Part shown: one piece after another, positions 12,001-14,889 of the stretch
Layout of the letters: each line of letters opens with the position of its first letter
How positions within the stretch are numbered: the first letter of the stretch is position 1
Source: a virus
Taxonomy: Duplodnaviria; Heunggongvirae; Uroviricota; Caudoviricetes
Length of the DNA: 14,889 bases
Direction: 5' to 3' (one strand)
Virus record (IMG/VR): IMGVR_UViG_2531839200_000009
Location: 1 to 14,889 of that record
Position numbers: made by a program

Positions 12001-14889
12001 GCGGGGTATCAGATAACAGCACCTGCTCAGGAGGAAACCGGTGGCATTAACAGCAACACGCATTCCTGAGCGGATCCACCGGCAGGCATTGCAGGTCCTG
12101 TTGTTGTACCGATGCCGACGGATATTTCCGCATCGGATACAGCGCACCGGATATCTCAGTCTGAAGGTTAACCGTTGCTGGCGGCTGTTATCGAAAGGCG
12201 ACGGCCGGAACTGGGAAGTAATGAGTCATGAACGTTATTCGGGAGAAATAAAGAAATGATCGACAACCGCACCGCCAGCGCCATTGACCAGGCATTACAG
12301 AAACATGATACACCCGTCGGCCCGTTATTTTTTGTAACACGCCGCGGAAGAACAAAAAAATGCCTCACCCGAAAAACGGCAATTCGTTACCTGGCATTCT
12401 TTATGACCACCCGCGCTTTTGAACGTTCAGGATTCCGGCAACGCTATCCTGACAAGCGTTTTATCTTCAACGGGAATGAGATATGGAAACGTGGAGAATC
12501 AACCACAGAGTATACCCGCGCACACCAGCGAACAATCAGACGACTGCGCAGACTCATCGCCAGGAAACAGTATACAGAAAAATGGTTCAGAAAATATGAC
12601 ACATGGAGCGCCGGATATTACGAACTGATGGCAACAAAACCATTCTGACGTAAACGAAATTAACCATGACGCAATTAAATAAGGCAAGCCGCATACATCA
12701 GGAGGACCATGAACATTTATTTCAGAATAGTTATATCACTGGCAATTATCACATGTATTTACGGATTAATCGTTCCGGCCCTCATATCAATGAAGGATAC
12801 GGTAGCAGTGATTTCTGGCTTTGCTCTGGCGTGTCTGACCCCGCCCTGCATTTATGCCATTTATAAGGGTCTTTCTTTTTCTAAGGATAAAAGATGAAAA
12901 AATTACTTTTTGCTTTAGCCCTTGTTCTGCCGACCATTGGCCTTGTCGGTTGCGATCGCGTTGAGCCTGGTAATGTGGGCATCAAAGTAAACAAACTTGG
13001 CGACGATAAAGGCGTCGGTGAAGTGGTCGGTGTTGGGCGCTACTGGACGGGATGGAACACTGAAGTTTACATCTTCCCAACCTTCAAACAAATGAAGACC
13101 TACGATGAGCCGTTCAGCTTCCAGATGAGTGACGGCACAACCATTGGCTATCACATCGGTGTTGCCTACAAAGTTGATCCATCCAAAGTTACCACGGTGT
13201 TTCAGACCTACCGCAAAGGCGTGGATGACATTACCGATACTGACCTGCGCCAGAAGATCGCCGACGCACTCAATCGACTGGCCAGCAAAATGACCACTGA
13301 CAAATTTATCGACGGCGGGAAGTCTGAACTACTGGATGCAGCTCTTAAAGACATTCAGGCAGAAATGACGCCCATCGGTATTCAGGTAATGAGTCTCTCA
13401 TATGTGGGTAAGCCGGAGTACCCGCCAACCGTTATCGACAGCATTAATGCCAAAGTCACGGCGAACCAGAAAACCCTGCAACGCGAACAGGAAGTAAAAC
13501 AGCGCGAAGCGGAAGCTAACATGTTGCGCGCGGAAGCTGCCGGACAGGCAGATGCGATTCGCACAAAAGCCCAGGCCGAGGCCGATGCTATTCGTTTACG
13601 CGGTGAAGCTCTGCGCCAGAACCCTGGCGTCATGGAGCTGGAAGCCATCAACAAGTGGAACGGTACTCTGCCGCAATACATGACCAGCGGTGCCAATACA
13701 CCATTTATCCAGATTAAATAACTTACACGCCCGGCAAACCGCCGGGTTAATGGAAAATCAGATGAACAACCAGAATACTCAACCGCAAATAATGAACTAT
13801 GACCCGAATCTGACGTCGTGCGGACGCATGGCAAAACAAACCGTTCGATTAACTTTCGGACTATGGGAATACCGCGAAACATTCGAAGTTACTGTCGGCG
13901 GCAATCTGACCGGACTGGATGTTATCAATTGCGCTATTGAAAGCCTGTACGCAACGCTGCCTTATGAAGAAGCCCTGGATGAGCGCACAGGGGAAACGGA
14001 TATCATGGCCACCATTAATATTGGCGAACTGATATGCCAGGATGAAGACCTGTCCGGAGAACTCTGGCTTGCCGGGATGCTTATCTCAGCAGAAATTATC
14101 AGCATTGAACCCGCTACAAACATACGGCTCTGAAGTTCTCACTATTCAGAGAGCAGGAGAAAAAATGTTCGCTCTGATTAATCAGGGACAACTGTATACC
14201 GACAGTGCCGGTTACCCGGTAAAAATTGTTCGCTGCATAAACAACACCGTGTTGTACAGAAGATGTGAAGCGAATGTTTGAAGTGTGGTGCCACTGCCGT
14301 GGATGAAAGTTTTATGAGGTTGGCATGCAGACAATCATCTATCAGATAACCCCCAGCAAATGGTGTACGGAGAGAGTCCTTATTGCATCAACAGGGCTAA
14401 AGCCCGGCACCATCGAGCGGGCCAGAAGAAAGTCATGGATGCAGGGAAAAGAATACCGCCATTACGCTGTAGAAGGTGATCCTGGGCATTACAGTGAATG
14501 CCTGTACAACATCGAAGAAATTATGCGATGGATCGAAAACCAGAAACAACCAGGTGCCAAAAATGCAAGTTCCGGTTAACCTGTTAATGCTCCTGGACGT
14601 CTGGGAGGTTTAATGAGTAACGCATCATACCCGACAGGCGTTGAAAACCATGGAGGATCACTCCGTATATGGTTTCACTATAATGGCAAACGTGTCAGAG
14701 AAAACCTCGGTGTTCCTGACACAGCCAAAAACCGGAAGATCGCTGGTGAACTTCGCACTTCCGTTTGTTTTGCAATCAGAATGGGGAGTTTCGACTACGC
14801 CGCGCAGTTCCCTAATTCCCCTAACCTGAAACACTTTGGTCTGGGAAAAAGAGAGATAACCGTTAAGGCACTTTCGGAAAAATGGTTGG

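Follow-up and report, generated by a model that had tools for sequence, protein, structure and literature searches.

A coupled gene pair in an Stx2 prophage

We analyzed a 14,889-nucleotide stretch of a Caudoviricetes virus (IMG/VR record IMGVR_UViG_2531839200_000009; the whole stretch is called the window below), which is a phiP27-like lambdoid prophage, and describe here two adjacent genes on its plus strand. The first encodes a 62-aa protein with two predicted transmembrane (TM) helices, referred to as the hairpin, and the second encodes a 275-aa predicted lipoprotein of the SPFH/Band-7 superfamily. Both open reading frames (ORFs) lie exactly where an earlier note, made from the sequence alone, had placed them. 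The two genes recur side by side in phages, plasmids and cellular chromosomes, and their features in the window are as follows.

12700-12705, plus strand: Shine-Dalgarno sequence AGGAGG, read directly, followed after 3 nt by the ATG of the small ORF at 12709
12709-12897, plus strand: ORF of the 62-aa two-TM hairpin; PHROG 1130, E 1.5e-23
12775-12801, plus strand: inter-helix turn P23-A-L-I-S-M-K-D-T31, with the family motif P-x-L-[IV]-S-x-x-D
12894-12897, plus strand: ATGA start/stop overlap of the small-ORF TGA with the SPFH ATG, read from the sequence
12894-13721, plus strand: gene of the 275-aa SPFH/Band-7 lipoprotein; Pfam PF01145; PHROG 200, E 4.6e-114
12894-12956, plus strand: predicted lipoprotein signal peptide, with the lipobox L17-V18-G19-C20 at 12942-12953 and Asp21 (+2) at 12954-12956
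12957-13517, plus strand: SPFH1 and SPFH2 core, residues 22-208 by Pfam, also seen in the AlphaFold2 model
13425-13619, plus strand: continuous 65-residue Ala/Glu/Gln-rich helix, residues 178-242, in the AlphaFold2 model (predicted local distance difference test, pLDDT, about 81-92 per 10-residue block)
13653-13706, plus strand: C-terminal motif K254-W-x-G-x-x-P-x-Y-M...P270-F271, invariant columns in a 7-sequence alignment

The ATGA overlap bears out the translational coupling of the SPFH gene to the small two-helix ORF that the earlier note had proposed.

The SPFH lipoprotein

The Band_7 family (PF01145) matched residues 22-208 of the 275-aa protein with an E-value of 8.2e-31 and 107.8 bits (cut-off, 23.6), and the helix of residues 178-242 was modeled behind SPFH2, which confirms the SPFH-like core and Ala/Glu/Gln-rich tail that had been read from the sequence. 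An AAGGA stands 9 nt upstream of the ATG. The protein begins with MKKLLFALALVLPTIGLVGC followed by DR, that is, Cys20 and then Asp-Arg, so that the lipobox LVGC with Asp at +2 is present as previously noticed. The pattern [LVI][ASTVI][GAS]C identified a lipobox in 103 of 120 close homologues and in 115 of 120 distant ones, and Cys-Asp-Arg was kept in 97 of the 103 enterobacterial homologues with a locatable lipobox. Asp at +2 is the Lol-avoidance signal of E. coli. From the lipobox and Asp21 we infer that the protein is lipidated and retained in the inner membrane, the effect of the Arg at +3 being uncertain.

The AlphaFold2 monomer model, made with a 78-sequence alignment, had a mean pLDDT of 80.5 and consisted of a beta-rich SPFH1 region (residues 20-94), an alpha/beta SPFH2 region (96-175), the helix 178-242 and, behind this, a short helix and a tail modeled at low confidence. 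The long helix corresponds to the wall helix of SPFH cages, and its length differs among homologues by blocks of 11 and 22 residues. Within the C-terminal motif, W255, G257 and P260 were invariant in the 78-sequence alignment and Y262, M263, P270 and F271 in the 7-sequence alignment; the pLDDT of this motif was low in the monomer model. The motif is a candidate for an oligomer-cap segment, suggestive only.

Foldseek aligned about 250-310 columns of the model to prohibitin (8rrh_B, 3.6e-14, the top match), HflC (7vhq_G, 7e-14), HflK, erlin, stomatin and QmcA (8z5g), and also matched flotillin. The probability was 1.00 and the E-values 1e-11 to 1e-14 for full-length prohibitin, HflK/C, erlin and stomatin; over all of these folds the E-values ranged from 1e-14 to 1e-8, at an identity of about 15-18%. 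By sequence, the nearest PDB entries were HflC (E 4.7e-8, the best), QmcA and HflK. The model suggests that the protein has all the parts of a cage-forming protomer, yet no single subfamily fits. The name 'serine protease' given to it in the old phiP27 and Stx-phage annotation was rejected, as Band_7 was the only family above the Pfam threshold and no protease domain was found at E-values up to 0.1.

HflK/C and prohibitins both partner FtsH-type AAA proteases. The earlier note had suggested that a prophage SPFH protein in the early-left operon could tune the lysis-lysogeny decision. On this reading the protein would be a phage mimic of HflK/HflC that cages or otherwise modulates host FtsH, and hence the stability of CII/CIII-like regulators, as a functional analogue of lambda CIII in the same operon. 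The predicted periplasmic orientation, which is common to HflK/C and, topologically, to the prohibitins, agrees with this suggestion, as do HflC as the best PDB sequence, prohibitin, HflC and HflK as the best folds, and the labels 'prohibitin family protein' or 'regulator of protease activity HflC' that many homologues carry in their source records. However, the protein scored far under the cut-offs of the hflC and hflK equivalog families, its predicted anchor is a lipid and not a TM helix, there is one paralogue and not a heterodimer, and Foldseek cannot tell HflK/C from erlin or stomatin. What stands of the suggestion is membership of the superfamily; the shared orientation makes FtsH modulation possible, but the idea has no specific support and we regard it as unlikely.

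The hairpin and its family

The hydrophobic segments of the 62-aa protein span about residues 4-24 and 32-52, its ends, including the C-terminus, are basic, and a short polar turn separates the helices; an N-in/C-in topology is predicted. The Pro of the turn was invariant across 24 aligned partners from several phyla, taken from phages, Enterobacterales, Dyella, Cupriavidus, Sutterella, Leptospira, Saprospirales, Flavobacterium, Sphingomonas, Methylumidiphilus and two metagenome-assembled genomes (MAGs). The ratio of non-synonymous to synonymous polymorphism (pN/pS) was 0.16-0.49 against 26 of the 27 other alleles of related prophages, and the 27th allele had three non-synonymous changes and nothing else. 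Because of these ratios, the match to PHROG 1130 and the single profile match per locus upstream of the SPFH gene (see below), we conclude that the small ORF is a real gene under purifying selection, not a chance ORF.

Among 1.84 billion proteins searched, stand-alone relatives of the hairpin had at least 100 representatives, all of 36-91 aa; this search used a narrow profile of close relatives, so that 100 clusters is a lower bound. The motif P-x-L-[IV]-S-x-x-D was found in 93 of 99 stand-alone representatives, and a diverse profile recognized 99 of 99. The window hairpin scored 70.1 bits with the diverse-seed hidden Markov model and has the defining features of the family, namely membership of PHROG 1130, the sequence P23-A-L-I-S-M-K-D30 and a place directly upstream of a lipoprotein SPFH gene. 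Neither Pfam nor NCBIfam has a family for it. In Pfam scans of the window hairpin (E up to 0.1) and of 8 diverse hairpins (E up to 1), no NfeD, holin, Imm or superinfection-immunity match was found; at these lenient limits only sub-threshold, inconsistent TM noise appeared. The phiP27 and RCS47 records leave the hairpin unannotated. These comparisons indicate that the hairpin family is a conserved one, without a Pfam model and represented in PHROG 1130 only, whose putative role as a partner is newly described here.

The size and layout of the hairpin, with two TM helices and a basic C-terminus, are those of class II holins. It might therefore be a holin- or antiholin-like protein that is checked or organized by the SPFH scaffold and sets the timing of lysis. 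In a Staphylococcus Kayvirus, MbpS, a distant SPFH homologue, is encoded in the lysis region beside the holin-like MbpV (PMC7150955). But PHROG has no holin or Imm family for the hairpin, and the likeness consists of size and two TM helices only. The pair lies in early, not late, regions, the closest full prophage match encodes a separate class II holin, lysozyme and lysis protein away from the pair, and the pair is kept in the core chromosomes of Dyella and Leptospira. We count a role in lysis timing among the less likely readings and consider it very unlikely.

Pairing, coupling and fusions

To measure adjacency, the 24-partner profile was run against all six-frame ORFs of 169 loci (1.5 Mb); its seeds came from 24 of these loci, and the matches in the others are independent. 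Exactly one match was obtained in 154 of the 169 loci; it invariably shared the strand of the SPFH gene and lay upstream of it, and no match fell anywhere else. All 80 viral loci had the match, as did 65 of the 80 loci from species-level genomes. Of 67 loci, 64 had an intergenic gap of -20 to +23 nt, 18 loci having the identical 4-nt overlap, and the three exceptions were a T5-like phage and two loci with an insertion sequence (IS) element between the genes. A two-TM ORF that overlaps the SPFH gene by 4-20 nt lies directly upstream of it in P88, RCS47, the virulent N4-like Pylas, Pseudomonas phage Ostro and Burkholderia phi1026b; in the T5-like Salmonella phage, the partner lies one small ORF further upstream.

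Single-chain versions were found in three cases (L132, P0243 and P0003), where a hairpin, a basic linker, a signal-anchor and an SPFH body follow one another. The order of parts in these fused chains is consistent with an N-in/C-in hairpin and an SPFH body outside the cytoplasm. Taken together, the sequence comparisons suggest that the hairpin is an obligate partner of lipoprotein-type SPFH proteins.

Several loci show variation at the junction. In two of them (L089 and L090, about 5215-5985; Shigella flexneri and one E. coli), the hairpin/SPFH junction is exactly the site of an inserted stretch of about 0.77 kb that contains IS-like ORFs, replaces the hairpin stop codon and uncouples the genes. 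In P1-like phage-plasmids (P0003; L004, 3940-3970), the 20-nt overlap of the hairpin and SPFH genes spans an A7 run (ATGAAAAAAACG), and eight database sequences have the P1-like hairpin and SPFH protein fused in frame, for which sequencing error, phase variation or frameshifting are possible explanations.

In the Kuttervirus PhiSH19, a 'superinfection exclusion protein' annotated beside the SPFH gene is a soluble acidic protein of 106 aa and was rejected as a partner. The same locus (L169) contains an unannotated ORF of 72 aa with two TM segments (1432-1650, minus strand), which overlaps the start of the SPFH lipoprotein gene by 4 nt. Its inter-helix loop is long and basic, suggesting the opposite topology, and it has no P-x-L-I-S turn. 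Because of this ORF, small TM partners may be general for phage SPFH lipoproteins outside the hairpin family too.

Distribution of the pair

SPFH homologues were detected by tblastn in 641 phage records, with identities of 93-98% in Stx2 phages and phiP27 and 73-81% in N4-like Schitoviridae; the P2-like P88 and P1-like phages were also matched. A virulent N4-like phage carries the module with a 78% identical mature SPFH protein, and the T5-like phage a 53% identical version (about 49% by tblastn). Burkholderia and Pseudomonas temperate phages are among the carriers of the pair, and more distant SPFH homologues were found in viruses of Burkholderia, Pseudomonas, Caulobacter, Staphylococcus and Halorubrum. 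In IMG/VR, at least 564 contigs had an SPFH match, but the first scan of it returned near-identical prophages only, and diversity was therefore drawn from the scan of species-level genomes. Among plasmids, 612 had an SPFH homologue, 593 of them non-mobilizable and of about 90-130 kb, with 63 Yersinia records. Judged by size alone, these plasmids fit phage-plasmids. Plasmids of about 100 kb from Y. pestis (L096; H118-H120), the size of pMT1, carry the pair with about 80% protein identity to the window SPFH protein.

The SPFH gene was present in 535 of 5426 complete E. coli genomes and is thus not a core gene of this species. In Dyella and other Rhodanobacteraceae, about 19 of 23 loci lie in one conserved chromosomal neighborhood, between a BlaI/BlaR1-like pair and nrdAB, and in five species of Leptospira the chromosomal pair adjoins the succinate dehydrogenase (sdh) genes. 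A 157-aa ORF without a Pfam family starts 3 nt past the SPFH stop codon in 5 of 5 Leptospira species (L147, 6825-7298, plus strand) and could be a third component of the cellular version. The earlier note had allowed for a host gene pair captured at the edge of the prophage; the pair proved to be phage-linked in enterobacteria and to lie inside the prophage, while a cellular pair does exist in Dyella and Leptospira.

Virulent N4-like and T5-like phages, which make no lysogeny decision, and the core genomes of Dyella and Leptospira carry the module, and this counts against FtsH modulation in the service of lysogeny. Because virulent phages and free-living bacteria share it, a general membrane role early in infection is most likely, and a lysogeny-specific role or a CII switch is unlikely.

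Exchange of the cassette among phages

In P88 the pair is annotated after cox and before the replication gene, on the same strand, whereas in the P1-like RCS47 it stands alone between upl and a tRNA gene. The pair is thus a self-contained two-gene cassette with different flanks in unrelated phage backbones. Positions 12600-13800 of the window are 100% identical to several E. coli chromosomes, and with this segment as the megablast query, matches to other phages ran from query positions 343-348 to 1088-1089, which delimits one further feature.

12942-13688, plus strand: segment shared with the P2-like P88 and P1-like phages at 85-91% DNA identity (megablast)

The DNA similarity to P88 and RCS47 extends from the lipobox codon to ten codons before the end of the SPFH gene. 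Among the window, P88 and RCS47, the mature SPFH proteins are 95-96% identical and the hairpins 20-29%. These limits, together with the divergent hairpins, point to a recent exchange of the segment encoding the mature protein. They also mean that very different hairpins serve a near-identical SPFH body, presumably via the conserved turn.

T4 Imm and Sp and HK97 gp15 are known exclusion proteins, and virulent T4 and T5 make such proteins early. The pair could likewise serve superinfection exclusion or membrane defense, the scaffold shielding inner-membrane components needed for DNA entry, either early in infection or from the prophage. Predicted inner-membrane and periplasmic products, a place among the early-operon accessory genes and in variable loci such as that between upl and tRNA in RCS47, and the spread of a self-contained cassette across unrelated backbones would suit this role; its presence in virulent phages is no obstacle, given their early exclusion proteins, and the PHROG category of the hairpin is 'moron, auxiliary metabolic gene and host takeover'. 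Against it, no defense model in PADLOC-DB 2.0 (E up to 0.1) matched the hairpin, the SPFH protein or five neighbors, the hairpins had no Pfam superinfection-immunity or other family at E-values up to 1, the scan of the surroundings gave neither a promoter nor a terminator dedicated to the pair, and the chromosomal versions outside prophages argue for a housekeeping membrane role. An exclusion function is in our judgment distinctly unlikely.

The prophage and the genes around the pair

The other features of the window that were identified are listed below.

1341-2581, minus strand: Shiga toxin 2 operon stx2AB
1341-1610, minus strand: Stx2 B subunit gene, 89 aa; PDB 1r4p_B, E 7.8e-43
1622-2581, minus strand: Stx2 A subunit gene, 319 aa; Pfam RIP; PDB 1r4p_A, E 4.9e-194
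2673-2749 and 2763-2839, minus strand: two tRNA-Arg genes (anticodons tct and tcg), between the Q-like antiterminator gene and stx2A
3045-3989, plus strand: 314-aa ORF, PHROG 7003, without a Pfam family
4126-4941, minus strand: Q-like antiterminator gene
5798-6766, minus strand: primase gene
6768-8426, minus strand: helicase gene
10486-10929: PHROG 'CII-like regulator', in the leftward early operon
12041-12259, plus strand: 72-aa ORF with a ParE-like toxin domain; Pfam PF24732, E 2.2e-16
14325-14579, plus strand: xis

The window is an Stx2-converting prophage, as the stx2AB operon at 1341-2581 shows. A DUF6645 gene stands at the position of stx2AB in an E. coli record (L001) that matches 12600-13800 at 100%. 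Placement of tRNA genes between Q and stx2A is the usual layout of Stx phages. The 314-aa ORF, which lies between Q and the tRNA genes and is opposed to the late operon, is a possible moron. In the examined E. coli record, the prophage is inserted beside a DUF72 gene, upstream of yecN-cmoA.

On the plus strand the order is two helix-turn-helix regulators, small accessory ORFs, the hairpin-SPFH pair, a DUF5406 gene, xis and int. The pair is thus inside the prophage, three genes before xis/int, and the edge of the prophage is not at the pair. The ParE-like ORF overlaps the ORFs at 11854-12069 and 12256-12648, forming a coupled chain of small ORFs two genes before the hairpin; no antitoxin for it was identified. 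The 'early-left operon' of the earlier note holds as to orientation, with regulators, pair, xis and int in a row, but its driving promoter was not identified. A promoter and terminator scan found no sigma-70-like promoter in 11525-12709 and detected no promoter or terminator flanking the pair, and is uninformative on which promoter drives it. The CII-like regulator in the leftward early operon speaks for the FtsH reading, and it speaks against that reading that no CIII-like protein was recognized among the small ORFs of the window.

A full-text search of the available literature library on phage SPFH, Band 7 and prohibitin genes returned annotation-level remarks and speculation, plus one virulence paper; it turned up no description of the hairpin partner. 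The guesses are that phage SPFH proteins serve adsorption or DNA entry (PMC13239085), drive lysogeny through HflC (PMC10269572) or aid the secretion of lytic enzymes (PMC7150955). Over about 25 years such proteins have been labeled 'serine protease', 'lipoprotein', 'prohibitin' and even 'transposase', and the phage-genome papers that came up contain no experiment on them. The SPFH gene belongs to a known, uncharacterized phage family; what the sequences add is a conserved non-NfeD hairpin partner, fusions of the two, and a distribution over both cells and phages.

Of prophage SPFH proteins, the search turned up a single one that had been studied by experiment: PM0222, an HflK/C-like protein from a Pasteurella multocida prophage, which is reported to be found in outer-membrane vesicles (OMVs), to induce cytokines via Toll-like receptors 1 and 2 (TLR1/2) and to add to virulence (PMC9872710). 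The window protein, encoded in an Stx2-converting prophage, might by analogy be a lysogenic-conversion or virulence lipoprotein that is released in vesicles and sensed by host TLR1/2. However, PM0222 is likened to it by description only, Asp at +2 predicts retention in the inner membrane, no promoter of its own was found for the pair, and the pair also occurs in virulent phages and environmental bacteria. This too is one of the less likely readings, and we give it hardly any credence.

Proposed role of the pair

The reading that we favor, with moderate confidence, is that the pair encodes an SPFH scaffold of two subunits, which sits at the periplasmic face of the inner membrane and serves the early phase of lytic growth. 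The 275-aa protein would be exported, lipidated at Cys20 and kept in the inner membrane via Asp at +2, with its SPFH body in the periplasm. Through the long helix and the C-terminal motif, the SPFH subunits would form a ring or dome around a membrane patch, as expected from HflK/C, prohibitin, stomatin, QmcA and erlin. The hairpin, co-produced through translational coupling, would span the inner membrane N-in/C-in, and its P-x-L-I-S turn, at the periplasmic surface, would bind the SPFH subunit. In this way it may supply the TM anchor or 'fence' that the lipid-anchored SPFH protein is without. The module is probably an ancient cellular one that was captured by many phage lineages. In temperate phages the pair lies in early lytic operons (the closest full prophage match and P88), and in the Stx2 prophage its production most likely falls into early lytic development or the time shortly after infection, when it may reorganize or insulate part of the inner membrane. 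We infer cage formation, the direct contact of hairpin and SPFH protein, localization, expression timing and physiological role from these comparisons.

Several points weigh against this scaffold. No hairpin match was obtained in 15 more distant genome loci (32-46% identity), and in many non-enteric and most of the distant homologues the Cys is followed by Ser-Lys, so that retention in the inner membrane need not be a general trait. As to the fusions, P0003 lies in the A7 run and may have arisen from a sequencing error or a frameshift, and L132 comes from a MAG. The operon promoter was not identified by the sigma-70 scan, and expression from the prophage is possible, since the first plus-strand genes are regulators that are perhaps transcribed in the lysogen. 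The physiological role, moreover, remains generic.

A more far-reaching version, which we put forward tentatively and think rather unlikely, is that the pair represents a hitherto undescribed, NfeD-independent two-component class of SPFH scaffolds, conserved from Leptospira and Bacteroidota to Proteobacteria, captured by several unrelated phage lineages (lambdoid Stx, P2-, P1-, N4- and T5-like phages) and present on non-mobilizable plasmids of about 100 kb, and that its viral form is an early periplasmic cage that sequesters a host inner-membrane machine, FtsH or a DNA-entry factor. If FtsH were caged, the pair would be a structural counterpart of lambda CIII, and a viral cage of this kind would influence the outcome of Stx2-phage induction and toxin release.

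SPFH proteins are universal membrane organizers whose clients are mostly unknown, and a lipoprotein-type SPFH protein with a tiny, usually unannotated hairpin offers a defined minimal two-gene system that lends itself to expression, purification, imaging and deletion. The pair occurs in Stx2 prophages and in widespread probable phage-plasmids of E. coli, Klebsiella, Salmonella and Yersinia pestis, and the biology of toxin phages would be touched by any influence that it has on FtsH, membrane integrity, superinfection or lysogeny. If the pair is a generic scaffold only, the gain is a modest one in annotation, a new partner family and a corrected 'serine protease' label.

Comparison with known systems

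E. coli HflK/HflC, the cage that modulates FtsH (PDB 7vhp, 7vhq, 7wi3 and 9cz2), has a like architecture of SPFH1, SPFH2, long helix and C-terminal segment, and the inner-membrane periplasmic location predicted for the window protein. However, HflK and HflC are about 17% identical to it, have an N-terminal TM helix and are encoded by two adjacent paralogues, whereas the window system has a predicted lipid anchor, a single SPFH gene per locus and a 62-aa hairpin as the partner. In the NCBIfam equivalog test, the protein scored below the cut-offs of TIGR01932 hflC (24.6 bits vs. 134.4) and TIGR01933 hflK (22.7 vs. 159.4), the only other NCBIfam match being a sub-threshold one to FloT. Identity with HflK/HflC is thus ruled out by these scores, the anchor type and the single paralogue.

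SPFH-NfeD operons likewise place an SPFH gene beside a gene for a small multi-TM membrane protein. QmcA faces the cytoplasm and has a TM anchor, whereas in the window the small gene comes first and a periplasmic lipoprotein is predicted for the SPFH gene. The solved structure of QmcA-YbbJ (PDB 8z5g) includes the partner (Tan et al. 2024, pmid 39181124, as cited in PMC12624060). The partner in these operons has an NfeD domain; the window partner has none, and at 62 aa is too short for an OB-fold after two TM helices. Of the two families named in the earlier note, Band_7/SPFH was found and NfeD was not, either in the window hairpin or in the 8 diverse hairpins, and family representatives have 36-91 aa, by which an SPFH-NfeD pair was rejected. 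Prohibitin PHB1/PHB2 (PDB 8rrh and 9o9z) is the top fold match and lies on the equivalent side of the membrane (intermembrane space/periplasm), but it is 15-16% identical, a eukaryotic heteromer with TM anchors, and has no small partner of the hairpin kind.

PM0222, also a prophage SPFH protein, resembles the window protein by description only, and its role as a TLR1/2 agonist on OMVs and virulence factor is silent on any function in the phage life cycle. The closest relation is to PHROG 200 'lipoprotein' and PHROG 1130 'membrane protein', two families without an assigned function that are not linked to each other in the library searched; the window proteins are direct members of them, and phiP27 L05, P88 gp11/gp12 and Pylas_028/029 are the same pair.

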